From Atribacterota bacterium (GTDB lineage: Bacteria > Atribacterota > Phoenicimicrobiia > Phoenicimicrobiales > Stramentimicrobiaceae), in NCBI GenBank assembly GCA_040767965.1, contig JAXGNR010000012.1, forward strand, positions 1 through 56,237: a stretch of 56,237 bases of DNA. Reading direction: 5' to 3'. How positions within the stretch are numbered: position 1 is the first letter of the stretch; every line of letters begins with the position of its first letter. Both the position numbers and the translations under genes were made by a program. This document shows, one piece after another, positions 5,167-23,647 of this stretch. Below the pieces are notes generated by a model. The model was not told the origin of the DNA. It ran no database searches and saw only the letters and a list, made by a program, of their open reading frames with translations.

Positions 5167-5169
5167 CTT

Positions 5170-6654: not shown

Positions 6655-6904
6655 AATACTTCAAAAATCTCTTTATAATTATTAAATATTTTTAAAATAA
6701 GATTAAAATACGAAAGAGTATGATAGATAATACCATTTTTTATTATTTTGTTAAATGTTAGGATTATTTACAATTCAAATCAGTCTTAATTTTGATTATT
6801 GAACATTGGTATTATTAGAAATTTTCATTTTATTTTTACTGCATAGATTTATATTATATAAATTTTACTCTGGCCAAATAGCAAATTTTGTAGTATAATT
6901 TTGT

Positions 6905-6922
6905 TTGTGCATTATTTCACAA
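6905..6922 (+). promoter_or_regulatory. Rex (NADH/NAD+ sensor) operator
   Basis: TTGTGCATTATTTCACAA closely matches the Rex consensus TTGTGAA-N4-TTCACAA; immediately after a TATAAT -10 (6894-6899) and upstream of the hydrogenase. Confidence 0.8.
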
Positions 6923-7008
6923 TGTTATAATAATTAAAATTATACCCTTAATAAACTGATATTTTAAGCAATAAGCTTATAAAATATAGAATTAAACAAG
7001 GAGTTAAT

Positions 7009-8880
7009 ATGTCAATAAAAATTGAAATAAATAATATACCGGTAGAAGTGGAAAAAGGAACAACTATTTTAAAGGCAGCAAAAGAAATTGGAATTAAAAT
7101 TCCCACTTTATGCTATTTGGAAGGTCTGCAAAACCCCGGATCTTGTCGCCTATGTCTGGTTGAAGTAGAAGGTGCAAACAACTTACTCCCTTCCTGCATA
7201 ACCGAAGTAGCTGAAGGCATGAAAATCAAGACAAATAGCAAAAGGGTCAGGCAGGCTAGAAAAATAGTATTGGAATTACTTTTAAGCTCTCATCCCTGGG
7301 AATGTAATACCTGTGATAGAAATCAGGATTGTGAATTGCAAACTTTAGCTGAAGAATATGGTATCAGAGAAGTGAGATTTCAGTCTTATAAAGTAAAATT
7401 ACCCTTAGATACCAGTACCCCGGGTATTGTCAGGGATCCCAATAAATGTATCCTGTGCCGGCGCTGTGTTACTGTCTGTCAGGAAGTACAAAAAGTATCC
7501 ACACTAGGACCTCGTTATCGCGGAATCAAAACAATCATTGGTCCTGGACAGGTTGATTTTTTATCAGATGCAGTGTGTGTACAATGCGGACAATGTGCTG
7601 CTGTCTGCCCGGTAGGCGCTATCAGTGAATGTGATGACACTGAAAAGGTATGGAATGCTATTGAAGATCCCCAAAAATATGTAGTAGTACAGACAGCTCC
7701 TTCTATCAGGGCAGCTCTGGGAGAATGTTTTGGCTTACAGCCAGGTACCCTGGTTAAAGGACGTATGGTTACTGCTTTAAGAAGATTGGGCTTTGATCAG
7801 GTTTTTGACACCAACTTCGCGGCTGATCTTACTATAATAGAAGAAGGACATGAACTACTGTCTCGCTTAAAGAAAAAATTAGTTGAAAAAGATGAAAATA
7901 CAAAACTTCCCATGTTTACTTCCTGCTCTCCGGGTTGGATAAATTATATGGAAAATTTTTATCCTGAATTAATTGATAATATTTCTACCTGTAAGTCACC
8001 ACAACAAATGTTTGGCGCTATAGCCAAAACCTATTTTGCCGATAAAATCGGTAAGAAAAAAGAGGATATGGTAGTGGTATCTATCATGCCCTGCACTGCC
8101 AAAAAGTTTGAATGTAATCGAGATGAAATGACCGATAGTGGAGTACAGGATGTGGATTATGTTCTGACTACCAGGGAATTGGGTAAGATGATTAAACGGG
8201 CAGGAATTGATTTTGTTAATTTGCCGGATGGGGAGATGGATGCCCCGTTAGGTATTTCAACAGGTGCAGCAGATATTTTTGCTAACACTGGTGGAGTTAT
8301 GGAAGCTGCCCTGCGAACTGCTTATGAAACAGTAACCGGGAGAAACTTACCTTTTGATAGATTACACATAACCCCGGTTCAGGGATTAGAAGGAGTTAAG
8401 GAAGCCCAGCTAACCATAAAAGATACATTACCAGAATGGAATTTTTTAGAAGGTGTAACATTAAAGGTAGCAGTTGCTCATGGCCTTGGAAATGCCAATA
8501 AAATAATTGAAGCTACCTCAAAAGGGGAAAAAGAATATCATTTTGTTGAAATAATGACCTGCCCGGGCGGTTGTATCGGAGGAGGAGGCCAGCCTCGTTT
8601 GACTACCGATGAAGTCAGAAAAGCCAGGATTCAGGCAATATATAAAGAAGATGAGGGTCGGGAGCTCAGAAAATCCCATGAAAATCCAGCTATTAAACAG
8701 CTGTATGATGAGTTCCTGGGAAAACCGCTGGGAGAAAAATCACATCACCTTCTTCATACGAAATATTTTGATAAGAAAAATAAAAAAGAGAAACAGGAAG
8801 ATAGAAAAATTCAAATTAGTTCACAAACAAAAAAAACAACTGTAAAGAAAAGAGATAAAGAATGCAGCATACGAACATAA
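7009..8880 (+). CDS. hydA: [FeFe]-hydrogenase group A catalytic subunit (2Fe-2S, His-ligated 4Fe-4S, 2x4Fe-4S, H-cluster)
   Basis: H-cluster motifs TSCSPGW, MPCTAKKFE, EIMTCPGGCIGGGGQP; HPWECNTC and CxxCxxCxxxC motifs. Confidence 0.95.
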   Translation: MSIKIEINNIPVEVEKGTTILKAAKEIGIKIPTLCYLEGLQNPGSCRLCLVEVEGANNLLPSCITEVAEGMKIKTNSKRVRQARKIVLELLLSSHPWECNTCDRNQDCELQTLAEEYGIREVRFQSYKVKLPLDTSTPGIVRDPNKCILCRRCVTVCQEVQKVSTLGPRYRGIKTIIGPGQVDFLSDAVCVQCGQCAAVCPVGAISECDDTEKVWNAIEDPQKYVVVQTAPSIRAALGECFGLQPGTLVKGRMVTALRRLGFDQVFDTNFAADLTIIEEGHELLSRLKKKLVEKDENTKLPMFTSCSPGWINYMENFYPELIDNISTCKSPQQMFGAIAKTYFADKIGKKKEDMVVVSIMPCTAKKFECNRDEMTDSGVQDVDYVLTTRELGKMIKRAGIDFVNLPDGEMDAPLGISTGAADIFANTGGVMEAALRTAYETVTGRNLPFDRLHITPVQGLEGVKEAQLTIKDTLPEWNFLEGVTLKVAVAHGLGNANKIIEATSKGEKEYHFVEIMTCPGGCIGGGGQPRLTTDEVRKARIQAIYKEDEGRELRKSHENPAIKQLYDEFLGKPLGEKSHHLLHTKYFDKKNKKEKQEDRKIQISSQTKKTTVKKRDKECSIRT

Positions 8881-9350
8881 AATGGATTTCAAGGACAGCC
8901 TTTTTGCTTGCTATTGCCCTGGTCTTCCAAATGGGAGGTTTTCCGCAATTTATAACAGGTCCATTAGTAAATACCGTGCTTTATCTGGCAGCGGTGATAG
9001 TTGGATGGCAGGGTGGGATTTTGATTGGTATTTTTACGCCGATTATTGCTGCTATGCGGGGGATTTTACCTCCTCCGCTAGCCCCTTTGATTCCTTTTAT
9101 TGCCCTGGGCAATGCAATACTGGTAATTTTATTTTTTTGGCTGAAATCAAAAAACAATATTCTGGCTATTATTATCGCCTCTTCAGCTAAATTTTTGATT
9201 TTAGTAAGTGCAGTAAAAATATTGGTTCAGGTTCCGCCTGCAATTGCTCAGATGATGAGTTTCCCTCAGTTAATAACTGCATTGGTAGGGGGATTTATTG
9301 CCCTTTTAATTGTGAAGATTTTTAAAAAGACTGATATTGAATTTAAATAA
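8862..9350 (+). CDS. ECF transporter S component (substrate unknown)
   Basis: 162-aa hydrophobic protein; ITGPLVNTVL, PFIALGN and PQLITAL motifs typical of S components. Confidence 0.75.
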   Translation: MQHTNIKWISRTAFLLAIALVFQMGGFPQFITGPLVNTVLYLAAVIVGWQGGILIGIFTPIIAAMRGILPPPLAPLIPFIALGNAILVILFFWLKSKNNILAIIIASSAKFLILVSAVKILVQVPPAIAQMMSFPQLITALVGGFIALLIVKIFKKTDIEFK

Positions 9351-9369
9351 AAAGTTGATTAGATAGAGA

Positions 9370-9413
9370 TAGTTTTATCAGGATGTCTATAAAATGACAT
9401 CCTGATAAAACTA
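9370..9413. terminator. Inverted repeat between convergent genes (likely bidirectional terminator)
   Basis: tagttttatcaggatgtc ... gacatcctgataaaacta, 18-bp perfect stem. Confidence 0.8.
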
Positions 9414-9426
9414 GTAGTCATAGTGA

Positions 9427-10170
9427 TTAATAATGTTTTACTTCTGCATGTTCCAGGTTTTCCCAAATTAACTCATTTCTATCCTGGAATTTCTTTACCA
9501 GCAATACAGACTTGTTTTCTTTTAATACTGTTTTTACCTTGCCTTTCAGGGATACCAATTCTTCATCTGAAAGTATTTGCCCATCTTCAGTACATGCTTT
9601 ATCTATTTCCCATTTCTCGCACAGATCTTTAATTTTGAATTTGCAGGGATTTTCTAAAATAAAATGGCTTCCACGGAACCTTCCGTCATTTCCGCTAAGC
9701 CGTAATCCAGTTCCCGCCAGAGCACCAATAACACCGTCTCCGGTTCCTCCATGTTCTGTTAAGTATATGGAAAGCTCTTCTGCCAGTTGGTAGGCATCCT
9801 GCTTGGATAATTTTTTTATTTTCGCTTTTCGGCCAAAATTGATAATTCTTTCGGGATATTTCACCTCATCCGGAAATACTACACACAAGCCAGGATCTGA
9901 TTCAGGTGCTGATTCTCTTTTTAAATAGGAAATAGACAGATCGATAATCCTTTCTATTTCCTTCCTTTGAGATATTTCCCCGGCAAAGCACATCACACTA
10001 TTGTGAGAGGTATAAGGGACTGACGGGTGAACGAATAGCTGGTGCCTGGTGATGCTGTCAGCTATCCCCCATCCGTTTTCAGTAATATTTTTCCTTATTT
10101 TCTCCAGTAGATGGCCGGTACCCGGCCAATCTTTCTGATCTGTATCATCAATTGCTAATAGATATCTCAT
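9427..10170 (-). CDS. TiaS (tRNA-Ile2 agmatinylcytidine synthetase) N-terminal-like protein lacking tRNA-binding domains; function unknown
   Basis: IDDTD..GT, RHQLFVHPSVPYTSHNS..C, SDPGLCV, GDGVIGALAG resemble TiaS catalytic-domain motifs; only 247 aa, no Zn ribbon. Confidence 0.6.
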   Translation of the reverse strand: MRYLLAIDDTDQKDWPGTGHLLEKIRKNITENGWGIADSITRHQLFVHPSVPYTSHNSVMCFAGEISQRKEIERIIDLSISYLKRESAPESDPGLCVVFPDEVKYPERIINFGRKAKIKKLSKQDAYQLAEELSIYLTEHGGTGDGVIGALAGTGLRLSGNDGRFRGSHFILENPCKFKIKDLCEKWEIDKACTEDGQILSDEELVSLKGKVKTVLKENKSVLLVKKFQDRNELIWENLEHAEVKHY

Positions 10171-10178
10171 CTGTTGAT

Positions 10179-11269
10179 TTATACATCCCCTTTTCTCAAG
10201 CGCATTCCTTCACCGCTTAATATCTTTTCTATATATTCATCTGTTAAATCCCATTCATAAAAGCTGGAATAAAAATATTTTACTTCTTCCTGCATACTGA
10301 TATCTTCAAACAAATCCGGATATAGCAGTTTGGCTACACATAAAATTGCTAGAGGTGTTTCCAGGGCATTAGTGGGATGACCCCACCGGGATACCCCATT
10401 GGGCATTTTATAAACTCTTTCATTTTTTACTGCCTGCAAATCAGCCCATTGTTCATTGGTAAGAATATATTTATCTACATTCTCTTCATTGACAATAATG
10501 ACTTCTGCATCCCAGAGTAATATTTGTTCTAAACTGGCAAAGTATTTATTTTCTAAAAACTTTAAATCTGTATCCAGGAAACATTGTGGGCTCCGGCAAT
10601 TTCCAGCCATTCAGCTGCCCGGGTACCCCTAGCGTCAGTCCTGGTTGCCTCGTTAACTGAATGATATACGGTAACTCTGTCTGAAAAAGGTATTTCCTTA
10701 ATTTTTTCCTGTACTCTTTCTATGCAATAATTATAATAATCAATATATTGTCTGGCTTCTTCAACCTCACCAAGGGCTTTGCCTATCATTTCCATAGAAA
10801 ACTGGTGCTCGGCAATAGATCCATAATCAATGACCAGATAGGGAATATCAAATTGCTCTATCTGGGCAACATAGGCTTCGCTAACCGCATTTTCTCCCTG
10901 GATAAACAGAATATCACAGTCGGCCCTGGCCAGCTCTTCAATGTTAATGACACTACTTTTACTGGGGACTAAGGCATCCTTAATATTTGGAAACATTTCT
11001 GTAAAGAGAACATCTCTTTTCAGTCCATCTACGATTGCCACAATGTCAGGTCCCCGGTTCAGTAAGGCAACAGCATGGCCGGAATAGGCAAATAGGCAAC
11101 CGATTCGCTCTATTTCTTCTGGATTAGGCACTTCTACTTCTCTATCAAAACAATCAATAACAATATTCTTTTCTGTAATTGCAGTCTCATCTGCTATAAT
11201 TGTTATGCTAAATGCAAATAATATACAAAAAATCATACTGAAAAAGATAATGAAATTTCTTTTAAACAT
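10179..11269 (-). CDS. Type II (Fe-siderophore/B12-class) ABC substrate-binding protein, split by one frameshift near 10576
   Basis: Signal peptide, DCFDREVEVP..IERI, INIEEL, SLEQILLWDAEVII, W..LQAVKNERVY; two overlapping ORFs are joined by restoring one C. Confidence 0.85.
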
Positions 11270-12092
11270 ATACTAAAGACTCCTTTTCTGAAATTTTTAT
11301 AGGGATGATATATTTCTGCTTTTTTAGATCATCCAAATCATAATCAATAATTTTGCATTCTATTTTAAATATTTTACTAATATTCTCTTTAGTCAACACC
11401 TCTCCAGGCCGTCCATAGATGGCAAATTTTTTTTCATTAAGCATGGCAGTAAAAGTTGTTAATCCATTATTCTCAAAATAAAAAGCATGATTCAGGTAAT
11501 GAGTTGCCAGAATAATAGATAAATTCTTTTTTTTGGCTAACTGCCTGGTTACCTCCAGAACAGTTAAACTGTTCTGGAAATCCAGATAAGTTGTGGGCTC
11601 ATCCATAATCATAATTTTTGATTGCTGAGCCAGTGCTCTGGCTATCATAACCAGCTGTCCTTCCCCACCGCTTAATTCAGTATATGGCCTGTGCATTAAA
11701 TGCTTTATACCTACAGTCTCAATGGCTTCATGAGAGGTTGAAACATCCTCTCTACCAGGAGACCCGAACATTCCAATATGGGAAGCTCTTCCCATTAGAA
11801 CAATTTCCTCAACTGTATATGGAAATGTTTTTTTATGTATTTGAGGGACATAAGCAATTGTTCGGGCAATTTCTCTTGCTTTTAGATAATTGATATTTTT
11901 CCCCTGTAATAATATTTCACCTTTTTTCAATGGGAAAATCCCCATAATGCAATCCAGGAGTGTTGTTTTTCCTGAACCATTAGGCCCTATCAGGCATATA
12001 ACTTCTCCGGCTTCCATCTGGAAATTAATATTTTCCAGAACATTGTGACGGCCATAACCAAAACCAGCTTCTTTTACTTCTAATAAAGACAT
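11262..12092 (-). CDS. ABC transporter ATPase, FecE/BtuD family
   Basis: GPNGSGKTT, LSGGE, MDEPTTYLD. Confidence 0.9.
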   Translation of the reverse strand: MSLLEVKEAGFGYGRHNVLENINFQMEAGEVICLIGPNGSGKTTLLDCIMGIFPLKKGEILLQGKNINYLKAREIARTIAYVPQIHKKTFPYTVEEIVLMGRASHIGMFGSPGREDVSTSHEAIETVGIKHLMHRPYTELSGGEGQLVMIARALAQQSKIMIMDEPTTYLDFQNSLTVLEVTRQLAKKKNLSIILATHYLNHAFYFENNGLTTFTAMLNEKKFAIYGRPGEVLTKENISKIFKIECKIIDYDLDDLKKQKYIIPIKISEKESLVYV

Positions 12093-12096
12093 CCTA

Positions 12097-13134
12097 CTAC
12101 CATCCCTTTCCCTTGGTCTTTTTTAAAAGATAGACAAAGAAGGGTCCGCCGATTAAGGCAGTAAGTATTCCCAGGGGTATTTCAGCCCCAATCAAAGTAC
12201 GACTTAAATTGTCCACCACAATCATAAAGAAAGCTCCCAGAAAAAAGCTGGCTGGAATAAGAATACGGTTATCATTACCGACCATCATCCGACCAATATG
12301 AGGCATAACTAAACCCACCCAGCCGATATTACCACTGACGCTAATCGCTCCAGCAGTAGCCAGCGAAGCACATAAAACCATAATAATTTTCGTCAGGATA
12401 TTATTAATGCCCAGTGCCTGGGCTTCTTTATCCCCCATTGACAGGACATTAATCTGCCAGCGCAGGGCAATTAATCCGAGAACACCAATAGAAATGGGTA
12501 TAATAGAAAAGTAGATATCTTGATACTGGGCAGTAGCCAGACTACCCATCAGCCAGAAGGTAATTGATGGTAATTTTTCAAAAGGGTCTGCTACAAATTT
12601 TGCAAAAGAAACCAGGGCAGAAAATATTGAAGACACAACCACACCACCTAACACCAGTGTAATTGTTGGAGTGGAATGGTAAATCTGTCCAATAAAAAAG
12701 CTCATTGCTACTGCTAACAAGGCAAAACCAAAGGCATAAAAATAAACCATATAATTCTGACCATATAGAATAATTGCCAGCACTGCACCAAAACTTGCTC
12801 CGGAGCTGACTCCCAAAATACCTGAACTTACCAAAGGATTCCGAAATAATCCCTGAAAGGCAGCCCCGCTAATAGCCAGGCTGCCTCCTACCATTGCACC
12901 CAGAATAGCCCTGGGCAATCTTATTTTCCAGACCACAGTGTTATAAATATTCGGAAAATCCTGATTAACCTGAGGATTAACAGTTACTCTGAATACAGCC
13001 ATGATGTCAGCCCAAGTCAAGGGATACCTGCCTATAAAAAGTGAGAAAAAAATCCCGATAAAAGGTAAAATGATAATTAATATCAGGAGAACACTATTCT
13101 TTTTTAATTTTAAAGCAGAAAAAATTTTTTGCAT
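12097..13134 (-). CDS. FecCD/BtuC-family ABC permease
   Basis: IRLPRAILGAMVGGSLAISGAAFQGLFRNPL, GNIGWVGLVMPH, EIPLGILTALIGGPFF. Confidence 0.92.
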   Translation of the reverse strand: MQKIFSALKLKKNSVLLILIIILPFIGIFFSLFIGRYPLTWADIMAVFRVTVNPQVNQDFPNIYNTVVWKIRLPRAILGAMVGGSLAISGAAFQGLFRNPLVSSGILGVSSGASFGAVLAIILYGQNYMVYFYAFGFALLAVAMSFFIGQIYHSTPTITLVLGGVVVSSIFSALVSFAKFVADPFEKLPSITFWLMGSLATAQYQDIYFSIIPISIGVLGLIALRWQINVLSMGDKEAQALGINNILTKIIMVLCASLATAGAISVSGNIGWVGLVMPHIGRMMVGNDNRILIPASFFLGAFFMIVVDNLSRTLIGAEIPLGILTALIGGPFFVYLLKKTKGKGW

Positions 13135-13166
13135 CTACATTCCGGTAATCATAATTTTGTTCAAAA

Positions 13167-13640
13167 TTATTTTATTGCCCCTAAGGCCATAAATTCCAAT
13201 ATCAGTTCTTCACCTAATTTTTCACCGCTTTTTGATTCTAATTCAGGAAAAATAATAATCTGGTAAGTCTTTAAAGATTCTATACCTTCTTTTATAATCA
13301 GGGTAATATTATTTCTCTTTTCTCTTTCAATCTGGTCATCAGCCATTTCAATTTCTACAGCTACTTCACTACCGCCTTCTTTGTTAATAACCTTGAAGCA
13401 TTGACTATTATTTTCACTGACTTCCATGTTAACTACATTCTTGCTGAAAGTGAATTCAATAACAATGTTTCTTTGTCCTTCATCATTTAATTCATCAGTC
13501 ATACGAAATGCTTCCAAAACCAGAGGATTCTTTCCACTGTCCTGTGCCATAGCAGAAATAGTTCCTAAGGTAAACACAACAACCAGAATAACAGCCAAAA
13601 TTAAATTTGATTTTTTTATACTCTGTAAATTTAAAAACAT
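13167..13640 (-). CDS. Secreted Ig-like (Big_5/SbsA-type) domain protein
   Basis: Signal peptide ending AMA; FTFSKNVVN...DDQI...KSGEKLG beta-rich pattern; GGAGG RBS before ATG 13640. Confidence 0.6.
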   Translation of the reverse strand: MFLNLQSIKKSNLILAVILVVVFTLGTISAMAQDSGKNPLVLEAFRMTDELNDEGQRNIVIEFTFSKNVVNMEVSENNSQCFKVINKEGGSEVAVEIEMADDQIEREKRNNITLIIKEGIESLKTYQIIIFPELESKSGEKLGEELILEFMALGAIK

Positions 13641-13670
13641 AAAAACCTCCAAATATTTTTTTGATTAAAA

Positions 13671-13702
13671 TAAAAAATCCTGTACTTTTCCCCGTACAGG
13701 AT
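13671..13702 (-). terminator. Riboswitch expression-platform intrinsic terminator
   Basis: ATCCTGTAC-ggggaaaa-GTACAGGAT followed by a U-tract, between the aptamer and the first gene. Confidence 0.8.
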
Positions 13703-13710
13703 ATAATTAT

Positions 13711-13803
13711 CTCTTCTTTCCAAACACGGGGGGCTCAGCAATTTCTCACTAAACCTGATGGTTAGCTTTCATGGAAAACCTTTAGAAAAACTAACTCGAA
13801 GAA
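13711..13803 (-). ncRNA. Moco/Wco riboswitch (Moco RNA motif), P3-lacking variant
   Basis: Minus strand CTTCGA-GTTAGTTTT-TCTAAA..CATGA-AAGCTAAC-CATC-AGGTTTAGTGA GAAA TTGCTGAGCC-CCCCGTGTTTGGAAAGAAGAG: GAAA tetraloop, receptor-like motif, conserved CCCGTRTTTGGAAAG, no P3. Confidence 0.85.
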
Positions 13804-13833
13804 AATTGTACAGTATTTAATTTAATAAAAGTT

Positions 13834-13862
13834 ATTATACACAATTAGTTATTTTAGTGCAA
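13834..13862 (-). promoter_or_regulatory. Sigma70 promoter for the riboswitch operon
   Basis: TTGCAC-17 bp-TATAAT about 30 nt upstream of the aptamer. Confidence 0.7.
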
Positions 13863-13904
13863 ATAGATGAACCGGATATAGCCTATATATCATCAGGCAA
13901 TCCA

Positions 13905-13949
13905 AATTAAAAAGAATAGATATATTCAATATATCTATTCTTTTTAATT
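13905..13949 (-). terminator. Hairpin after wtpA
   Basis: aattaaaaagaatagatata/tatatctattctttttaatt inverted repeat. Confidence 0.7.
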
Positions 13950-13962
13950 ATTCTATTTTTCC

Positions 13963-15054
13963 TTATTTTTCAATAACTATACTGGCTAATGATTGAGGAA
14001 GATTGTTTGAAAAATCCACAACTGGTGGATTTATGACTACCTGTCCGGTATTTTCCATTATTCTCTGGCCCTGGGGACTAAGAATGAATTCCATCAGTCT
14101 GATTGCCTCTTGTGGATTTGGGGCATTATTGGGAATTGTTATTCCGTAGATAATAGGTAAAATGTCATAATCCGGATTGACTGATAAAAACCTTTTAAAA
14201 GCAAGTTTGACTTTCATATTCGAGCATAATGCTTTAAATTCCTCAGAACCCAGATTTATCTCCGGTGGAAACTCCAGAAAATTAACCTCATGCTGCCGGG
14301 CAACACTTTTGTATTCAAAACCATAATCCAGATCACCTGACTGAATAGGAAAAAGTAATTTGATACTGGAATCCCGGATGGCAAGTCTCTCCGCTTCCAA
14401 AATTTCCGGAATTAGAATTGTGTAGCTGTCTTCATTTTTTTCCACCTTAATAGGATACGAGAATCTTCCAATTACATTATGCAGTAAATCTTTTTCCTGA
14501 TAAAAAATTTCTGCTAATTTTAAAGCCATCAATGACCTGTAGCCACAGGCATCAAATCGTGGATCTGAAATTCCAACTTTTACCTCTGGTCTGGAAAGAA
14601 TTTGATACCAATTATCGGTATTGATCTCATCATTGTATTTGCTTTGGGAAGTGTAAGCTAATCCCAGAATGTTTGTTCCAAACTGAATACACCAGCTGGC
14701 ATAAGGTTGCTGGCTTTCCGGAATCATTGTTTCGTACATCAGTTTTGGAATCAACGAATAGTCAGCTACTGCAACAATATCTGCAATAGGCTCTCCTGAA
14801 AAAGCTGGTAATTCGATTACATGCCGGATAACCTGAATACTGCCATGCCCTTCAACCAGGACATCAATCCCTGGATTTTCTGCCTCAAAGGCCTTTTCTA
14901 TAGCCCCAAAAGGAACTAACAAACTTCCGGCTGCCTGGATTTTCACAGATATCTTTTCCTGGTCCTGGCAAAAACCAGATAAAAATAGGCTGATTATCAG
15001 TATAATTAAGCAAGCTCCAAAGACTGTTTTCCTTAACAGTTTTATGGTCATCAT
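13963..15054 (-). CDS. wtpA: Tungstate/molybdate ABC substrate-binding protein, WtpA class
   Basis: AAGSLLVPF..E..F, EGHGSIQVIR, AVADY, SDPRFDACGYRS, FEYKSVA, IIYGITIP. Confidence 0.85.
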   Translation of the reverse strand: MMTIKLLRKTVFGACLIILIISLFLSGFCQDQEKISVKIQAAGSLLVPFGAIEKAFEAENPGIDVLVEGHGSIQVIRHVIELPAFSGEPIADIVAVADYSLIPKLMYETMIPESQQPYASWCIQFGTNILGLAYTSQSKYNDEINTDNWYQILSRPEVKVGISDPRFDACGYRSLMALKLAEIFYQEKDLLHNVIGRFSYPIKVEKNEDSYTILIPEILEAERLAIRDSSIKLLFPIQSGDLDYGFEYKSVARQHEVNFLEFPPEINLGSEEFKALCSNMKVKLAFKRFLSVNPDYDILPIIYGITIPNNAPNPQEAIRLMEFILSPQGQRIMENTGQVVINPPVVDFSNNLPQSLASIVIEK

Positions 15055-15102
15055 TCCTCTCCTGTTAAATAGAGAATTTTAAAAAGTTTTGGCTATTTGC
15101 CT

Positions 15103-16077
15103 TTAGGGAAAAATAACTTTAATTTCTTTTATTTGACCTACCTGCTCTTTCCCGGTTAAACCATCTCCTACCAACCTTAATGGCCAGGAATTTTCCGGTA
15201 AAGATTCTCCGTCTAGTTTATATGCCACAATGATATTATTCCTTCGGGCAATAGATGAGATTGGAAGTGTTGCACTAAATCCGTCTTCAGCAATAATTTC
15301 TACTTCATATCCGTCCTGGACCAATGAATCATTAAAGGCTTTTCCTTCATGAGGATTATCATCATCTACCCGTCCTACCAGTAGCCACAGGGGAATTCCT
15401 TCCCATTCTCTACCTTTATCATCAACATATCTGGTACCATGACAACCTTCGGCTGAACCAGATTCAAAAGTAGCCCGATCAATATTTTCATCCCGTGCAC
15501 CTTTCAACTGTAAAACCCAATCCTTAGGAGCAGGAACCAGCTCTATCTGTTCAACCCACTTACTCCACCAGTGACCGTCTGTTACCTGATTCTTCTCACT
15601 AAGAATAGCCAGTCTTAGGGGACCACCCAGCTCAAAGGTCATTGCTTCTCCATCAGTCATATAAGCCAGAATCATATGCAAATCACCATGGGGCACTTCA
15701 TTTAACGAAACAGGGTCATAGGTAATAAAATCATTTTCGGTTACTTGTTTATAACTGAAAGTCATGGCATAACCGTCTCTGGAAATGATTTTAACAGCTG
15801 TATCAGGGTTAATGCCTCCGACCATATCGCATATTTCCAGAACAGATACTCCTTTTAGTTCAAAAGGACCCTCAATAGCACCGGTGCTGCGCATTCTACC
15901 TCCCCAGCCTTCTAAAGCAGGTAAATCCATAATTTCCTCCAGAGTTAATGTTTTTACTGTATCACCGGATGTTATTTTCAGGGCAACATCTTCCTGAGCT
16001 GCCAAAACATTGCCTATTGTTAATGATAGCCCAAATATGACCAGAAAAATTATTGTTTTTAATTTATTAATCTTCAA
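15103..16077 (-). CDS. Secreted protein with two molybdopterin-binding (sulfite oxidase/MsrP-like) domains
   Basis: Duplicated pattern KGVSV..DGY..ILAY..DG..GPLRL..KWVEQI / WEGIPL..DGF..IVAY..DG..PLRLV..QIKEI; Sec-type signal peptide, no RR motif. Confidence 0.7.
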   Translation of the reverse strand: MKINKLKTIIFLVIFGLSLTIGNVLAAQEDVALKITSGDTVKTLTLEEIMDLPALEGWGGRMRSTGAIEGPFELKGVSVLEICDMVGGINPDTAVKIISRDGYAMTFSYKQVTENDFITYDPVSLNEVPHGDLHMILAYMTDGEAMTFELGGPLRLAILSEKNQVTDGHWWSKWVEQIELVPAPKDWVLQLKGARDENIDRATFESGSAEGCHGTRYVDDKGREWEGIPLWLLVGRVDDDNPHEGKAFNDSLVQDGYEVEIIAEDGFSATLPISSIARRNNIIVAYKLDGESLPENSWPLRLVGDGLTGKEQVGQIKEIKVIFP

Positions 16078-16161
16078 TTTATTTCCTCCTAGTTTTTTTA
16101 TATTTTAAAGATCGTGGTAATTTTTTCAGTTCAAATATAGATATAAATAATCCTCCTCTCT

Positions 16162-16965
16162 TTATATGTTTTCATTTCTCATGATTAAAATTCTTAATAT
16201 AATAAAGATAATAAGTGAAATCATTACTCCCAGGGCAGCTATAGGGCGGGCATAGAAAAGTCCAAAATTAAAGCGGTCAGATACCAAGACCGGCAATGTC
16301 TTTCCACTCTTCCCTAAAAAAGATACATTATAAGCAATGATCATTACTGCACCAAACTCACTTACACCTCTTCCCCACATAAGAATACAGCCGGAATAAA
16401 TGCTTTTTAAGGCTAAAGGAAGAGATATATACCAGAATACCTGCCAGTGTGAAGCGCCATAAGTATAGGCGGTTTCTTCCAGTTCAATATCTATTGACTT
16501 AAAACCTTCCTTAACTGAATCAATCAAAAAAGGAATACTTACAAACATCATTGCCAGGACAACTCCATAGAATGTCTGGAAAAATTCAATTCCGAAAAAA
16601 CTAAAAACTCTCCCCAGGAAATAATTACGGCCAAAAACAAACAAGAGAGCTATGCCGGCTGCAGAATGGGGAATAACAATGGGAATATCAATAACGGCTT
16701 CCAGTATCCCTTTACCAAAAAAATTGTGTCTGGCTAGCAGATAAGCCAATGGTATCCCCAGTAAAAATCCCAACATTGTTGCAAGCAGTGCTGCAATCAA
16801 TGTTAAACAGATAGAGTGATTCACTTCTGGATCTTTTACTGTATTACACAATACAGATAATGGAGTATAAAAAATTGTTTTTAATGGTGGAAGAAGTATA
16901 AACAGGATTGTCATGATACCAATTAAAATAAAGATTAGATAGAACAAATCAACATTTTTTCTCAT
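16162..16965 (-). CDS. wtpB: Tungstate/molybdate ABC permease (WtpB/ModB)
   Basis: PLAYLLAR..F.GK, IDIPIVIPHSAAGIAL, EETAYTYGAS, RGVSEFGA. Confidence 0.85.
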   Translation of the reverse strand: MRKNVDLFYLIFILIGIMTILFILLPPLKTIFYTPLSVLCNTVKDPEVNHSICLTLIAALLATMLGFLLGIPLAYLLARHNFFGKGILEAVIDIPIVIPHSAAGIALLFVFGRNYFLGRVFSFFGIEFFQTFYGVVLAMMFVSIPFLIDSVKEGFKSIDIELEETAYTYGASHWQVFWYISLPLALKSIYSGCILMWGRGVSEFGAVMIIAYNVSFLGKSGKTLPVLVSDRFNFGLFYARPIAALGVMISLIIFIILRILIMRNENI

Positions 16966-17040
16966 TTTAGCAAGTAACCCTTTATTCCTTTCTACACCAA
17001 CGAATATTTATACTTTCCATTTATTTGCTATTCACCAGGA

Positions 17041-17097
17041 AATAAAAAAACAGCACTTTTTGACATTAGTAACAACAAGTTACATCAAAAAGTACTG
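17041..17097 (-). terminator. Riboswitch expression-platform terminator
   Basis: CAGTACTTTTTGA...TCAAAAAGTGCTG followed by TTTTTTT. Confidence 0.75.
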
Positions 17098-17119
17098 CCC
17101 TATATTTAAATTTCATCTT

Positions 17120-17233
17120 TCTCTCCTTTCCAAATACGGGAGGTTTAAACATTTCTATTTAAACCCTTAAGACTTTTGAGGTCTTGCGTTTACCGGTCAT
17201 AGAAAACCCTTAGGCCAGGTAAATCGAAGAGAC
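17120..17233 (-). ncRNA. Moco riboswitch (Moco RNA motif), P3-containing variant
   Basis: Minus strand CTCTTCGA-TTTACCTGG-CCTAAG..TATGA-CCGGTAAA-cgc-AAGAC ctcaaaa GTCTT (P3)-GGTTTAAATA GAAA TGTTTAAACC-TCCCGTATTTGGAAAGGAGAG. Confidence 0.9.
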
Positions 17234-17284
17234 TTATTTATAAATTATAAAAATTCTATTTCCCTGTTAAAAGTAATTTAATTT

Positions 17285-17503
17285 TTAGTCATCCACTGCT
17301 ATCATAACATTGCTGGCCTTAACAACAGCATATACCTCTTTCCCTATTTCCAGTCCCAGATTATTAACAGATGATTTGGTGATTACAGAGGTTATTTCCA
17401 TTCCGTTAGGCAGTTCAACGATAATTTCATCATTAACTGCTCCTTCTTTAATCTCTTTTACAATACCTTTAAGCATATTTCTAGCACTTATCTTCATTTT
17501 CAT
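17285..17503 (-). CDS. mop: Molbindin / Mop (TOBE) molybdate-binding protein
   Basis: KISARNMLKG..SVIT..S..LGL..G..AVVKASNV. Confidence 0.92.
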   Translation of the reverse strand: MKMKISARNMLKGIVKEIKEGAVNDEIIVELPNGMEITSVITKSSVNNLGLEIGKEVYAVVKASNVMIAVDD

Positions 17504-17621
17504 ATCCTCCTGTTTACTTATTTATTTTTACAGGCAATTTTTCTGTTCGTTATTCATTATTATATATCATTATACTATTTTTTGTGAAATAATTTTTCTA
17601 TAGTTTTCTTTAAATATATCT

Positions 17622-18431
17622 TTAAATACGCAATAGAAGATTCCCAAAAAAAAGAAAGAGCAATAATACCCCTACTTCATTTAGTTCATTAACCGCTCCT
17701 ATAATGTCACCACAAATACCCTGTATCTTTGCAAAAGAATAAAAGATTAACAGATAAGTAATAATTGCTGAAAATACCAGAAAGTAAAATGTGAAATATG
17801 ATAATAGATAAAAGCTGCATATCACAGCAAAGAAAGTAGCTATCAATAACTCTTTCCCTCCCAAATATATAGTGAACATGCGCGATAAAGAGTTATCAGC
17901 AGAGGCAGGTTTCCCTGAATAGCCAGCCAGCACCATTGACCATCTTCCAATAACCGGAGCCAATAGCAATGCTTCTGATTTATAAGCAGCAGGTAAATTG
18001 TTTATTAACAGCAGTTTTAAAATAATCAACAAGATTAAGCCAATGGCTCCCTTTGCCCCTATAGCCCCATCTTTCATTATACGGATAATCTCCTGCTGGT
18101 TTTTGCCACCGGAGAATCCATCTACCATATCAGCAAAACCCTCCAGGTGCAGTCCTCCGCTTAAAAAGATCCAGATTGCAAGAATAATTCCATTGACTAA
18201 CAAAATATCAAAGTGAGTAAATCCAAGTAAATAATTTACACCCACCAGAATAAAACCAATAAAAATACCAACTATCGGAAAAAATACACTGGATTTTGAT
18301 AAATCCTCTTTTATATAATCCTGTTCTTGTTTTGGCTGCTCCTTATTAGGAGTGGAAAATAAAAAGCTAACAGGCAAGACTGTTAAAAAAGAAAAGGCCA
18401 GAAGAAACCTTCTACACAAGTTTTTCATCAT
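17622..18431 (-). CDS. cobS: Adenosylcobinamide-GDP ribazoletransferase (cobalamin synthase)
   Basis: GGLHLEGFADMVDG, IMKD..IGAKG, GICGDIIGA. Confidence 0.92.
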   Translation of the reverse strand: MMKNLCRRFLLAFSFLTVLPVSFLFSTPNKEQPKQEQDYIKEDLSKSSVFFPIVGIFIGFILVGVNYLLGFTHFDILLVNGIILAIWIFLSGGLHLEGFADMVDGFSGGKNQQEIIRIMKDGAIGAKGAIGLILLIILKLLLINNLPAAYKSEALLLAPVIGRWSMVLAGYSGKPASADNSLSRMFTIYLGGKELLIATFFAVICSFYLLSYFTFYFLVFSAIITYLLIFYSFAKIQGICGDIIGAVNELNEVGVLLLFLFFGNLLLRI

Positions 18432-18987
18432 TATTCCCTTTAATTAAAATCGGAATACCGGCCACCATCAGATATACTTTAGCAGAATTGGCTGCAATAA
18501 ATTGATTAGCTTTACCTAAGGTATCACGGAAAAAACGCCCCAGCGGATTTACAGGAACTAATCCCAACCCTACTTCATTTGATACAATAATTAATGTAGC
18601 TGAACTTTTTAATGATTGGTTGATAATTCCTTCTACCTGCATCATAATGTTTTCATTTATTTCCTGGTTTTCTGAACCTTCCTGATAGTTGGTCATAAGA
18701 TTAGAGACCAAAAGAGTGAGGCAATCAAGTAATATCACATCTACCTGTTGACTAATTTTCTTAATAATTGGGAGAATATTATAGGGTTCCTCATATGTTT
18801 GCCAATCGGTAGGGCGGTGAGCGCGATGCTTGTTTATCCTCTCATGCATCTCTTTATCTAAAGCCTGTGCAGTGGCAATAAAGGCAACCTTTCCACCATT
18901 GTCGCGAGCTATTTTTTCTGCAAAAGAGCTTTTCCCACTGCGAACTCCTCCGGTAATCAGAATTATATTTTTATTTGAATAAATCAT
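18412..18987 (-). CDS. cobU: Adenosylcobinamide kinase/guanylyltransferase
   Basis: GGVRSGKSSFAE, EMHERI..HR..R, LLDCLTL, VSNEVGLG..P, FRDTLG. Confidence 0.95.
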   Translation of the reverse strand: MIYSNKNIILITGGVRSGKSSFAEKIARDNGGKVAFIATAQALDKEMHERINKHRAHRPTDWQTYEEPYNILPIIKKISQQVDVILLDCLTLLVSNLMTNYQEGSENQEINENIMMQVEGIINQSLKSSATLIIVSNEVGLGLVPVNPLGRFFRDTLGKANQFIAANSAKVYLMVAGIPILIKGNNDEKLV

Positions 18988-19028
18988 TCTTTTTCCTGCT
19001 GATAATACAAATAATAGTTAAGTAACTG

Positions 19029-20090
19029 CTATTCTTTTAAATCATCAAATGTGGCCATTTTGTTAAGTAGCTTAAATCCTGTTTCAATAAAATTCATACC
19101 ATAAACAGCCCCGGTGCCTTCACCTAAATGCATTTTTAAATCAAAAATCGGTCTTTTCTGCAGATAAGATAAAGCAACAAGATGTCCCTTTTCCTTTGAA
19201 CAATGACTGGCAAACAGATAATCTTTTACTATGGGAACAAGGTGCACTGCCAGTAAGGCGCAGGCTCCTGATATTAAACCATCCATTACCACAGGCACTC
19301 TTCTGGCTGCCGCAGCCAGTATGCAACCGACCAGTCCTCCTATCTCAAATCCACCTACTTTGGCCAGAACATCCATTGGATCTTTGGGGTTTGGCTGATT
19401 TACAGTAATTGCTTTCTTGATTATAGCGGTTTTATGCTCAACTTCTTCAGGAGCAAGTCCGGTACCCATGTCTACTGTATCTTCAATTTTTGCTCCAGTT
19501 AAGAGACTGATAATAGCACTGCTGGCAGTGGTATTACCTATACCCATTTCACCTAATCCAATCAGGTTAATTTCCTGACAGGCATAGCTTTCTTCAAAGA
19601 CCTCATAACCGGTTAGAATAGATTTCTCAGCCATTTCAGGAGTCATAGCAGGACCGTTAACCATATTAAAAGTGCCATGAGCAATTTTCCTTTTATTTAA
19701 TCCTTTTAATTCTTTGATGTCTGCAAATTCCCCCTTAACACCAATATCTGTAATGGCTACCTCTATACCGAAATGTTCAGTTAAGATATTTATGGCAGCA
19801 CCGCCATTTAAAAAATTTAAAACCATCTGGCGGGTAATTTCAGCAGGATAAGCACTGATTTTTTCAACTGTTACTCCATGATCGGCTGCCATTAAAAAAA
19901 CTACTTTTCTCTTTAAAGGTGGATTTACTGTTCCATAAACTCCGGCTGCCAGGGCAATTATTTTCTCTAATTCGCCCAGGCTCTTGGCAGGTTTGGTTAA
20001 ATTATCAAATTTTTTTATAGTTATCTCTTCTAAATCTTTATTAACTGGCATAATTTTTTGAATTATTTTTTCAATTTTCTTATTTCTCAA
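19029..20090 (-). CDS. cobT: Nicotinate-nucleotide-DMB phosphoribosyltransferase
   Basis: LTKPAKSLG, AADHGV, GEMGIGNTT, LGEGTGA. Confidence 0.95.
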   Translation of the reverse strand: MRNKKIEKIIQKIMPVNKDLEEITIKKFDNLTKPAKSLGELEKIIALAAGVYGTVNPPLKRKVVFLMAADHGVTVEKISAYPAEITRQMVLNFLNGGAAINILTEHFGIEVAITDIGVKGEFADIKELKGLNKRKIAHGTFNMVNGPAMTPEMAEKSILTGYEVFEESYACQEINLIGLGEMGIGNTTASSAIISLLTGAKIEDTVDMGTGLAPEEVEHKTAIIKKAITVNQPNPKDPMDVLAKVGGFEIGGLVGCILAAAARRVPVVMDGLISGACALLAVHLVPIVKDYLFASHCSKEKGHLVALSYLQKRPIFDLKMHLGEGTGAVYGMNFIETGFKLLNKMATFDDLKE

Positions 20091-20733
20091 TTGAGCCAGC
20101 CTTTTCTTTTTGAAATTTTAGATGGGCTACATCATTTACCGAACTAACATAAAAACCACTTTCCTTTTCAAATTTCAATATGTTTAAAGCAGTAGATTCC
20201 TGTCTGATGTGCCATATATTTTTAATTGGGATTTCAAGTGCTAAGGCAATAATCATTCTTGTTACTCCGCCATGACAAACAATAATTATTGTTTTTTCTT
20301 TGTTTTCTTCATAATGATCCGCAATTACTTTATCTAAAGCTGATTTAACTCTTTTTTGTAAATCAAAAACACTTTCTCCGCCTGAGAGTGGTGAATCAGG
20401 TTGATTCCACCATCCGGGTGAAATACTTTCTCCTATTTTCTGATTATATTCTTCAAGCTTTAATCCTTCCCATACTCCAAAATGAATTTCCCTAAAACCT
20501 GGTTCTATGGATAATGGTGTTTCTCGATTCTGTAACACAATTTTTGCTGTATTGACAGCTCTTTTCAAATCACTACTATAAGCAGCATCAATTTTCTCCC
20601 CACTTAAACGCTTGCCTAACTGTTCAGCCTGCCAGATACCTTTTTCAGTTAATTCAACATCCTGGTGGCCTGAGAATCTTCTTTCAACATTACTTTGTGT
20701 TTCACCATGCCTTATTACCAAAAATTTCAACAT
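20080..20733 (-). CDS. cobC: Alpha-ribazole phosphatase (histidine phosphatase)
   Basis: RHGET, SSDLKRA, REIHFGVWEG, CHGG; operon context. Confidence 0.85.
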   Translation of the reverse strand: MLKFLVIRHGETQSNVERRFSGHQDVELTEKGIWQAEQLGKRLSGEKIDAAYSSDLKRAVNTAKIVLQNRETPLSIEPGFREIHFGVWEGLKLEEYNQKIGESISPGWWNQPDSPLSGGESVFDLQKRVKSALDKVIADHYEENKEKTIIIVCHGGVTRMIIALALEIPIKNIWHIRQESTALNILKFEKESGFYVSSVNDVAHLKFQKEKAGSIEK

Positions 20734-20896
20734 TTTACAAACCTTCTACTATTCTTATTTATATAATTATTTAATTTATTATAATATAAAATCTGGTAAA
20801 ACTTTATAACATCCTTACCAGTAATTAATTTTCGCTCTTTTATTCTATGCCATAGTGGGCTAATTAACTTATCTAATAAATATCTTATAAATATTA

Positions 20897-22213
20897 TCAC
20901 TGCTTTTTTGCAGATACCGGCAAAGATTTCAGATAAACATGTGGAAAATGGTATTGTCCTGATACCCAGGTAGCCTTTTCTCCTACTCCCAGTATATTTT
21001 TCATAACCTCAAAAGCATTGCCAGCAATCATTACATTTTTTACCCGACCTGTTACCTGGCCATTTTTAATTTTAAATCCCAGTTGAACATTATTAGAGAA
21101 GGACCCACTTAGGACATTGCCCTGGCCTAATCCCAGAACCTGATCAACTATAATACCTTCTTTAATATCTTTTATCATCTCTTCCATTGACATTTCCCCT
21201 TCCGGAATAACAAGATTACTTATTCCGGGGGCAGGGGGAGAACTGTAACCAGGTCTCAATCCGTTACCGGTAGGCTCTACTTCGGCTTCGGCAGCATTTT
21301 GCAAATCATAATAATAATTTTCCAGCACTCCATTTTTTATCAATGGTAATCTTTGCATCTTAATTCCTTCATCATCATAAGGAGCACTTCCTCCGGCATA
21401 GTCAATAGTACCATCACTATACATTGAAAAAAGGGGGCTCCATACCAGTTGTCCTTTTTTGTCACCCAAAGGTGATATTTTCTTATTTACTGATCGGCCA
21501 TTTAATCCGCTGATGAAAGGTAAAATCAATACTAATAAAGCTTTCGGAGTAAAAATGACTGGCATATTTCCACTTTCAATATCTACAATTTTAGAACTCC
21601 ATTTTATTTTCTGTTCAAGCTTTTCCCAAAAAATATCCAAAGGCATGGAATCACTACCCCACTGTTGAGATTCCATCAGCATTAACATATCATTTTCAGT
21701 AGTATTTTGAACCATAACAGAATAAGCAAACATGGTTTGTTCGTACTGAAAAGAGCCTCCAAAAGTATTGTAGTATTCCACCGTGCTTTCTTGTTTTGTT
21801 AAACCGGCATCACAGCGAAAATCTGCATTTATGGAATTGATTTTTTTAATAATCTTGTTTCCTTCTTCAATCATTTCGGCAATAGTTTTTTCTTTGATTT
21901 TTTTATCAGACATCTGCAGATTTAAATCAGTGGCAGGGATAATTTTTTCTGGAAAATTAAAATAAGCTTTTTGCCCGAATTGAGATACTTCAATAGCTTT
22001 TTCCAACATGCGATTTATTTGTTCCTGTGAAGTTGCGGAAGAAAATCCTATTTTATTATTCTGAATAATTCTCAGGGCCCATCCTTCTAACTCCTCTGCA
22101 TTAATGGATTTCAGTTGATTCATTTCATAATCAATGGGAATAGATTTATAATTGACCCGAAATAACTCTCCTGCCGGAACTTTTTGTTTTATTTTTTCTA
22201 TAATCTGTTGCAT
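20897..22213 (-). CDS. pmbA: PmbA/TldE family protein
   Basis: PYDDEG, TGNG, paired with tldD, no HExxGH motif. Confidence 0.85.
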   Translation of the reverse strand: MQQIIEKIKQKVPAGELFRVNYKSIPIDYEMNQLKSINAEELEGWALRIIQNNKIGFSSATSQEQINRMLEKAIEVSQFGQKAYFNFPEKIIPATDLNLQMSDKKIKEKTIAEMIEEGNKIIKKINSINADFRCDAGLTKQESTVEYYNTFGGSFQYEQTMFAYSVMVQNTTENDMLMLMESQQWGSDSMPLDIFWEKLEQKIKWSSKIVDIESGNMPVIFTPKALLVLILPFISGLNGRSVNKKISPLGDKKGQLVWSPLFSMYSDGTIDYAGGSAPYDDEGIKMQRLPLIKNGVLENYYYDLQNAAEAEVEPTGNGLRPGYSSPPAPGISNLVIPEGEMSMEEMIKDIKEGIIVDQVLGLGQGNVLSGSFSNNVQLGFKIKNGQVTGRVKNVMIAGNAFEVMKNILGVGEKATWVSGQYHFPHVYLKSLPVSAKKQ

Positions 22214-22214
22214 A

Positions 22215-23585: not shown

Positions 23586-23647
23586 AATTTCCTCCTGCTA
23601 CCTTCTAATGCAAATTCTGTAATTAATATTTTTGTATTTGTTTTTAT

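Follow-up and report, generated by a model that had tools for sequence, protein, structure and literature searches.

RNAs of the molybdenum cofactor (Moco) riboswitch family were catalogued in 2008, and 58 of the 176 RNAs described then lack the P3 hairpin and are associated with tungsten-related genes (Regulski 2008, PMC2408646). Relying on that paper, later reviews regard the Moco RNAs and the tungsten cofactor (Wco, also Tuco) RNAs as two separate classes (e.g. Sherlock et al. 2022, PMC9481103). Genomes with both variants were already named in it, among them that of the cultured Moorella thermoacetica, and wtpA served as a marker of tungsten use (PMC2408646). Its supplement places Moco RNAs before FepD/FecCD-FepC-COG2014-TroA operons in Desulfitobacterium hafniense and Syntrophomonas wolfei, and also before genes of the sulfite oxidase family (PMC2408646). 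Here we analyse a 56,237-nt stretch of DNA (hereafter the window) from an Atribacterota lineage that has been met in metagenome assemblies and not in culture, in which two RNAs of this family (Rfam RF01055), one with P3 and one without it, lie in the 5' leaders of two different Mo/W-related transport operons, each with its own expression platform. Atribacterota are not among the host groups listed in the abstract of the 2008 paper (PMC2408646), and a literature search found no paper joining Atribacter and riboswitch.

Two RF01055 aptamers of different structural type lead separate operons

The whole window was scanned with the Rfam covariance models (cmscan) at gathering thresholds, the gathering score of RF01055 being 36 bits. 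The scan returned two RF01055 matches, termed copy A and copy B (Table 1), and one tRNA, and a permissive scan (E<=1) of positions 5000-24000 gave no RF01055 match beyond these two. Both copies belong to RF01055 and span model positions 1-135 of 135 without truncation. In the covariance-model (CM) alignment, P1, P2, P4 and P5 are present in both with their junction architecture and few non-standard pairs. The P4 loop is GAAA, the P2 receptor bulge is CUAA(G/A)G, and the shared core reads CC(U/C)CCCGU..UUGGAAAG(G/A)AG; in copy A, the bulge is CCUAAG and the conserved core CCUCCC...GGAAAGGAG. Copy A fills the P3 positions with AAGAC-CUCAAAA-GUCUU (RNA; plus strand 17169-17185, 7-nt loop), within which no non-standard pair was flagged, whereas in copy B the P3 positions are deleted and the remaining core is intact. 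A preliminary description of this region, made from the sequence alone, had placed both Moco RNA variants, with no strand stated, at 17120-17233 and 13711-13803, with the P3 hairpin AAGAC/GTCTT in the former and none in the latter, a separate terminator behind each copy, and a WtpA-class and a FecCD-type transporter downstream of the P3+ and P3- copies, respectively. Both ranges lie inside the RF01055 matches, and the covariance alignment, the terminators and the profile matches given below bear out these assignments.

Compared with the leader of E. coli moaA, the prototype of the Moco riboswitch, copy A shares P1-P5, the GAAA P4 loop, the P2 receptor, P3 and the core. Its platform is an intrinsic terminator, whereas the E. 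coli switch, as described, hides the ribosome site of the gene itself, and the GGAG of copy A precedes a short leader ORF (open reading frame) rather than the regulated gene. Copy B is not essentially different from the Tuco/Wco variant: it likewise lacks P3, keeps the core and stands in the leader of an oxyanion importer, in a genome whose AOR and Tup-like genes indicate use of a tungsten cofactor, and its MolBC-A-like operon adds two genes of no assigned role. Serial riboswitches such as the triple of Syntrophomonas wolfei likewise comprise several RF01055 copies that share a strand, lie a few kb apart at most and have a terminator each (PMC2408646, PMC9481103). Unlike the copies of that triple, those of the window differ in structural type and are set apart by complete operons, by a terminator hairpin and by a promoter-like site; they are therefore neighbours rather than a tandem logic gate.

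We consider it probable that copies A and B are two independent members of RF01055 and that each, by terminating transcription, switches off a separate operon for molybdate/tungstate supply. The first unit would consist of mop (possibly as its upstream member), the P3+ aptamer, its terminator, wtpB', a tandem PruR-like periplasmic protein, wtpA' and a closing hairpin, and the second of a promoter-like site, the P3- aptamer, its terminator, a small secreted protein, a MolB-like permease, an ATPase, a MolA-like protein and a TCKD-like protein. With ample cofactor, P1 of the aptamer would close, the downstream hairpin with its U-run would form and transcription would stop; with little cofactor, the operon would be read through and more oxyanion imported. 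The position of the terminators and the precedent of E. coli moaA point to the OFF direction for both switches. We infer further that the P3+ copy senses Moco and the P3- copy the tungsten cofactor, such that the first unit would be the molybdenum line of the cell and the second one of several tungsten lines.

Table 1 Features of the window and further RF01055 copies of the genome (C4, C6 and C9 are other contigs)
Feature	Position	Strand	Evidence
mop, 72-aa molbindin (TOBE/Mop domain)	17285..17503	minus	PF03459 64.5 bits; TIGR00638 81.9 bits
Moco-type aptamer with P3 (copy A)	17241-17107	minus	RF01055 78.4 bits, E 2.3e-17
Candidate 16-codon leader ORF behind copy A	17066..17116	minus	read from sequence
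Intrinsic terminator of copy A	17040..17099; stem about 17099-17051, U-run 17050-17044	minus	fold and orthologue alignment
WtpB-like type I ABC permease (wtpB')	16162..16965	minus	PF00528 56.4 bits; best NCBIfam match WtpB NF040839, 257.6 bits
Secreted 324-aa protein, two sulfite-oxidase-fold/PruR-like modules	15103..16077	minus	PF00174 (Oxidored_molyb) 54.7 bits, two partial stretches
WtpA-class substrate-binding protein, divergent paralogue (wtpA')	13963..15054	minus	TIGR03730 291.5 bits (cut-off 242.75)
A+U-rich hairpin after wtpA', 21 pairs	13949-13905	minus	-25.4 kcal/mol, z-score -6.5
Wco (Tuco)-type aptamer without P3 (copy B)	13813-13697	minus	RF01055 62.5 bits, E 1.1e-12
Intrinsic terminator of copy B	13667..13702; stem 13702-13677, then U-run	minus	terminator scan and fold
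Small secreted protein, 161 aa from TTG; probably 157 aa from ATG at 13640	13167..13652	minus	ORF
FecCD-family type II ABC permease, MolB-like	12097..13134	minus	PF01032 295.4 bits
ABC ATPase of type II importer	11262..12092	minus	PF00005 117.1 bits
MolA-like Peripla_BP_2 binding protein, split by frameshift	10179..11269	minus	PF01497 26.1 and 24.3 bits (halves)
247-aa TCKD-like protein, last gene of operon	9427..10170	minus	PF22641 26.3 bits (cut-off 27); TIGR03280 47 bits (cut-off 255.8)
Group A6 FeFe hydrogenase (623 aa, 7009-8880) and ECF S-component (162 aa), adjoining the mol operon	7009-9350	plus	
P3+ copy, locus L001	C9:84107-84258	plus	RF01055 80.9 bits, best P3+ score of the genome
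P3- copy before Tup-like ABC genes	C4:321688		RF01055 77.6 bits
P3- copy before moeA - moeA fusion - moaA - moaC/MOSC - mogA	C6:175992		RF01055 61.4 bits
Atypical copy, loci L006/L007	C9:78163-78291	minus	RF01055 33.8 bits, under cut-off

Both copies are followed by conserved terminators

The terminator of copy A is a 22-pair hairpin followed by U7 that starts 8 nt past the aptamer, and it appears alike in the minimum free energy and centroid folds of the 221-nt leader (z-score -3.47). A simple terminator scan overlooked it, G-C pairs being few in its stem. The terminator of copy B, a 9-pair hairpin followed by U6AUUUU, overlaps the aptamer by 6 nt. Both hairpins are the consensus structure across orthologous leaders from other Atribacterota genomes (10 P3+ and 5 P3- sequences), and in both the stem shows compensating changes on its two sides among orthologues, as in GUACU/GUGCU versus GUGUU/AUCAC for copy A. 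The terminator of copy B is kept in four clear orthologues, and in one case the stem is wholly replaced (CCGCAUG/CAUGCGG). As a candidate antiterminator, a long-range interaction between the 5' flank CUGUAC and the 3' arm of terminator B was considered; it was dropped, as the relatives G076 and G070 do not keep it.

The hairpin after wtpA' is likely to be the end of the first transcription unit. Promoter-like sites were found upstream of copy B (13863-13834, 10/12 matches; weak evidence) and upstream of mop (17588-17559, 11/12 matches); such sites are no commoner than in shuffled sequence (40 versus 36.4 +/- 6.0) and so carry little weight. Because of the hairpin after wtpA' and the promoter-like site at 13863-13834, copies A and B are read as separate transcription units. 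In addition, contigs of four public runs were aligned to positions 9300-17700. Contigs from an RNA library span 17123-17316/17318 and link the 3' end of mop with aptamer A, which is compatible with read-through from mop, DNA carry-over being possible, and the switch of copy A may accordingly lie between cistrons rather than at a 5' end. The stop at 17123 shared by two RNA contigs was discounted as a 3' end, since both come from one study. Among the DNA contigs, three joints link 13617-13947 to 17518-17600 with sides of only 21-23 letters, and no reading was drawn from them.

In copy A, GGAG lies within the 3' strand of P1 and is followed 6 nt later by the AUG of the candidate leader ORF (17116), whose frame crosses the 5' arm of the terminator. 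All ten leaders of the wtpB' class have GGAG followed by AUG after 6-10 nt, and in eight of the ten an ORF of 10-16 codons enters the 5' arm of the terminator; two frames with respect to this arm occur among them. GGAG-N5/6-AUG is also found in the P3+ leaders of the hydrogenase/ALDH (aldehyde dehydrogenase) class and is absent from the P3- mol and moeA classes. An open frame of this length is not improbable in A+U-rich sequence. A ribosome on the candidate ORF may act as an antiterminator when P1 is open; in the P3+ switch, a translating ribosome, rather than an antiterminator helix, may be what would prevent termination when the cofactor is scarce.

P3 status segregates with downstream gene class in Atribacterota

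RF01055 was searched in 79 Atribacterota genomes (G000-G078, this one included), and 110 matches, 104 of them over the cut-off, were found in 44 genomes, all within three of the seven families. We studied 103 matches and left out seven that lie at contig ends or on contigs without retrieved DNA. P3 was scored by counting residues between P2 and the P4 loop in the alignment, and same-strand downstream ORFs were classed by BLASTP to the annotated genes of this genome together with Pfam and NCBIfam scans of representatives. The P3 calls agreed with CM alignments in all eight representatives of different classes. Scoring P3 by match length alone was rejected, as three long matches (150, 159 and 128 nt) lack P3 and have a P2 loop enlarged by insertions. 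Three matches (h107, h109 and h110) are under the cut-off and poorly aligned, h110 being one of the five MolBC-like cases given below.

The matches were split into 79 P3-, 20 P3+ and four atypical RNAs, and among the 103 no downstream gene class was divided between P3+ and P3-. The P3- copies precede Tup-like ABC genes, often followed by moeA (26); genes for molybdopterin (MPT) synthesis in the order moeA-moeA-moaA-moaC (14); AOR-containing operons of several layouts, two of them with the tungsten-cofactor maturase TIGR04317 (14); canonical WtpABC, whose binding protein scores 373.7 bits against NF003196 (cut-off 355) (12); the small secreted protein with MolBC-like and TCKD-like genes (5); and Peripla_BP_2, FecCD, ATPase and DUF364 genes (5); three have no downstream DNA. 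The P3+ copies precede wtpB' - PruR-like - wtpA' (10), FeFe hydrogenase with an ECF S component (6), two ALDH genes with a hydrogenase (1), a Mo aldehyde oxidoreductase (NF045668, 1226.8 bits, cut-off 1100) with YqeC and a MobA/MocA-like protein (1), and an aldo-keto reductase (AKR) (1), and one has no downstream DNA. All four atypical RNAs precede a WtpA-fusion operon. The operon of the aldehyde oxidoreductase and the MocA-like protein is the sole Mo-specific one and is P3+, AOR and Tup operons are never P3+, and the WtpA-class protein of the window operon is Mo/W-ambiguous. P3+ subtypes elsewhere in the phylum have different yet complementary P3 sequences.

Both variants occur together in 13 of the 42 Atribacterota genomes with located matches. 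The order of a P3+ wtpB' operon followed on the same strand by a P3- MolBC-like operon is seen again in G076 and G065 and, in degenerate form, in G067. The contig of G065 carries, further along, a third copy that is P3- and has canonical WtpABC behind it. On a short contig of G060, a core-motif regular expression found no P3- copy between wtpA and the small secreted gene. The preliminary description had presented the two copies as a natural pair for testing Mo versus W discrimination in one cell. The pair is convenient and not special, given the six copies in this genome and the 13 genomes with both variants, and, as the host is uncultured, tests would have to be heterologous or in vitro, Moorella thermoacetica offering a comparable pair. 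The locus is a tidy example of the pattern described in 2008 and not a new kind of element.

The same survey bears on two other explanations. If both RNAs sensed the same ligand or the whole cofactor pool, P3 would be a neutral decoration co-inherited with operon lineages. Each gene class does have an RNA subtype of its own, so that vertical co-inheritance alone would keep the classes unsplit. Deletion of P3 from the E. coli RNA is reported to have abolished regulation and not to have altered specificity instead (PMC2408646), and this genome has no obligately Mo-dependent enzyme; both points count in favour of this explanation. It is opposed by the coexistence of both variants in those 13 genomes and by the unambiguous marker genes, which fall on the predicted sides, several kinds of AOR operon, Tup-like genes and the tungsten-cofactor maturase being P3- and the Mo aldehyde oxidoreductase with its MocA-like partner P3+. 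Moreover, two WtpA paralogues of one phylum lie behind opposite variants, and the 2008 data from other phyla gave the same outcome (PMC2408646). We regard a common ligand as rather unlikely, while granting it a small but real chance. Under the second explanation, metal-free molybdopterin or some earlier intermediate of the pterin pathway would be the ligand of the P3- class, which would thereby govern pterin synthesis and every metal importer, and the metal-loaded cofactor would be read by the P3+ class alone. The P3- copies do control MPT synthesis (the 14 matches above) as well as four different importers, and P3-lacking RNAs accompany MPT biosynthesis, shared by both cofactors, in the 2008 data too (PMC2408646). 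In the 14 cases in which a P3- copy precedes AOR genes, however, shut-off on metal-free pterin makes little sense, and control of MPT synthesis by the tungsten cofactor would be simpler in a tungsten-dominated cell; sensing of a metal-free pterin is in our judgement improbable. The survey supports the Moco/Wco split without proving it.

Several points weigh against the assignment of two cofactor-specific OFF switches. According to the 2008 authors, ligand binding had been shown for no Moco or Wco RNA, the ligands being too unstable for binding to be tested (PMC2408646), and no later paper on the binding or structure of these RNAs was among those listed by a literature search. The preliminary description had cited the lack of a direct binding test, and the correlation of P3 with Moco genes and of its absence with tungsten genes, as they stand in that paper. 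In the survey, RNAs are close kin within each class, so that it amounts to about 11 class-level observations rather than 99 independent ones, and the four atypical matches had been miscalled P3- and were set apart manually, for which a single CM alignment, that of the copy in this genome (G000), was the guide. An antiterminator helix was sought for both switches and identified for neither. Genome searches found no obligate Mo enzyme, with none of the XDH family and, of the sulfite oxidase family, the PruR-like 324-aa protein as the sole match. The P3+ unit has no ATPase gene, and none of the 10 ABC ATPase matches of the genome reaches the WtpC cut-off; in the P3- unit, molA is frameshifted in this assembly. 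Finally, the P3+ operon of the window bears the family label 'tungstate WtpA'. The paradox of a 'tungstate' WtpA behind a Moco-type RNA dissolves because the canonical paralogue is P3- and it is the divergent, ATPase-less, PruR-linked paralogue that is P3+.

To the question, dating from 2008, of whether the two RNA forms discriminate between Mo and W cofactors, this locus contributes a pair of compact leaders, one of each type and both with terminators, within a single genome. The survey provides an independent data set with clean separation by gene class and two WtpA paralogues on opposite sides, from which a difference in metal preference between the two binding proteins is predicted.

The P3+ unit contains a divergent WtpA paralogue and a tandem PruR-like protein

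The mop gene lies directly upstream of copy A on the same strand, behind cobC-cobT-cobU-cobS, and is found 46-120 nt upstream of the P3+ switch in six of the eight orthologous loci that have at least 200 nt of upstream DNA. The WtpB-like permease is under the NF040839 cut-off of 340 bits. WtpA' passes TIGR03730, in agreement with the preliminary label 'WtpA-class', and its best matches in the PDB are the archaeal ModA/WtpA proteins MJ1186 and AF_0094, which places it near WtpABC and the archaeal ModA/WtpA type represented by P. furiosus WtpA. That label masks a divergent paralogue, however: with 316 bits the protein is under the NF003196 cut-off of 355, and it is 30-34% identical to the canonical WtpA of Atribacterota, which passes both WtpA models and lies behind P3- copies in 12 of 12 cases. 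WtpA' is the only full WtpA-class gene of this genome. The unit is not a WtpABC operon, in which WtpB and WtpC are expected; it is without WtpC, and the tandem PruR-like gene is inserted between the permease and the binding protein. Assigning an ATPase partner to the WtpB-like permease from among the ABC ATPases of the genome was tried and abandoned, as no match was over the WtpC cut-off.

The secreted 324-aa protein gave no match in the PDB by sequence. In its AlphaFold model (predicted local distance difference test, pLDDT, 85.7), each half resembles PruR, the best Foldseek match being a 'putative pterin binding protein' (7kom, E 1.9e-7, TM 0.77, target), and sulfite oxidases rank behind PruR. 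The protein is without the usual dimerisation domain, belongs to a widespread family (589 homologues at E<=1e-5), and has C212 and H213 invariant in 35 homologues.

The P3- unit encodes a putative MolBC-A-like importer

HI1470, HI1471 and HI1472 of Haemophilus influenzae form MolBC-A, a type II importer of molybdate and tungstate (PMC4031551). The best solved relative of the FecCD permease of the window is HI1471 (2nq2, E 5.4e-68), followed by HmuU (3.3e-49) and BtuC (1.5e-38). An intact 362-aa orthologue of MolA (locus L013) matches best an unnamed binding protein (4ovk, 1.1e-29) and second HI_1472 (3psa, 2.7e-24), a likeness of overall sequence. With a FecCD permease, an ATPase and a Peripla_BP_2 protein near HI1471/HI1472, the unit has the gene families of the MolBC-A type, and the most fitting reading of the transporter is a MolBC-A-like importer of oxyanions, as opposed to an iron or B12 system. 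By analogy with MolBC-A, it would carry the oxyanion. Its operon, which stands under a Mo/W cofactor riboswitch, differs from MolBC-A in two additional genes, for the small secreted protein and the TCKD-like protein, and in a binding protein whose closest match is 4ovk and not MolA. A FecCD-type operon behind a Moco RNA, as the preliminary description reported, is indeed present, but such operons were already in the 2008 supplement (PMC2408646), where they include COG2014. Where Mo or W is concerned, labels such as 'tungstate transporter WtpA' or 'iron-siderophore FecCD' may misdirect annotation.

The small secreted protein is the first gene of the operon in all five loci of the MolBC-like class. 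Pfam and NCBIfam scans gave no family match for it, and an Ig-like domain (Big_5) suggested by a protein atlas is a lead only. The TCKD-like gene is present in four of the five loci, and the likeness of its 247-aa product to TiaS-TCKD and to methanogenesis marker 11 is weak, both models being under their cut-offs.

The frameshift in molA results from one missing C in a C-run at 10576/10577, across which the orthologue reads ...AGAHNVSLDADLKF. It could be taken to mean that the P3- unit is a decaying relic, with the riboswitch kept by inertia and the importer broken, the more so as the orthologous RNA of the relative G067 scores only 30.2 bits and molB is truncated there. Yet both contigs from other runs that cross this position, the first from an RNA library, the second from the DNA library of a different study, carry a frame-restoring extra base, and loss within a C-run is what an assembly error would give. 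The molA break is probably strain-specific or, more likely, an assembly error. Furthermore, copy B scores well over the gathering threshold with its terminator intact, all other genes of the operon are open, and contigs of the RNA library cover molA at 10354-10890, DNA carry-over being possible. We give hardly any credence to decay of this unit; both copies have the look of functional members of the known Moco and Wco classes.

Taken across the phylum, Atribacterota possibly keep two separate riboswitch-gated metal lines. The P3+ switch would feed a molybdate-dedicated, neofunctionalised WtpA/WtpB paralogue that lacks a dedicated ATPase and works with a molbindin and a periplasmic tandem PruR-like protein of pterin fold, and the P3- switches would feed the Tup-like, the canonical Wtp and two type II importers, with the leader ORF perhaps deciding P3+ termination; we put this forward tentatively, as less than an even chance. 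It might also be that the type II importers and the PruR-like protein handle a pterin-bound form rather than the bare oxyanion in a phylum in which no MoaE was found. MoaE (PF02391, E<=0.01) was found in none of the 79 Atribacterota genomes, 43 of them of high quality, and in 11 of 14 reference genomes searched as a control. MoaA, MoaC, MogA and MoeA are present, as are many AOR genes. The lack of a MoaE match beside them suggests that MPT synthase is of non-orthologous origin or that MoaE has diverged strongly. MoaC is fused to a MOSC domain.

Further RF01055 copies and metal enzymes of the genome

The genome (2.33 Mb, 30 contigs, 33% G+C) has six RF01055 matches, five of them over the cut-off: two P3+, three P3- and one atypical. 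Relatives of the window permease at 84-97% identity lie on contigs of uncultured Atribacterota, Candidatus Oleihabitans and Candidatus Stramentimicrobium. The other copies fit the split, the two P3- ones outside the window standing before Tup-like ABC genes and before the moeA-moeA-moaA-moaC-mogA genes. Behind the P3+ copy on C9 are a DkgA-like aldo-keto reductase and a gene like type I phosphodiesterase/sulfatase, with no evident link to Mo or W.

The genome has five strong AOR matches, one weaker match and one broken copy; the broken AOR gene (G000:C4:762876-763985, minus strand) has several stops and frame changes. It also encodes two FdhA proteins, one other enzyme of the bis-MGD (molybdopterin guanine dinucleotide) type and a MobA-like protein. 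The gene content indicates a cell rich in tungsten enzymes, in which a need for molybdenum is plausible and not demonstrable from sequence.

The atypical copy has a short P2 and P4, no GAAA loop and a P3-like hairpin in the CM alignment, and may represent a third structural subtype. It is followed by a WtpA-like fusion, a BtuF-like binding protein, FecCD and ATPase genes (a second type II importer) and a molybdate transporter of the MOT1 family, and this RNA and its operon recur in three other genomes. In the close relative G076, P3+ copies precede two NAD-type aldehyde dehydrogenases (L047, C15) and, separately, the Mo aldehyde oxidoreductase (L056, C45); these loci look like cofactor-dependent switching between isofunctional enzymes.

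A decayed riboswitch was considered upstream of the FeFe hydrogenase that adjoins the mol operon in the window and rejected, as the 640-nt gap is empty by cmscan (E<=1) and blastn similarity is confined to the coding region. In six relatives, the same pair of FeFe hydrogenase and ECF (energy-coupling factor) S-component sits behind a P3+ riboswitch.

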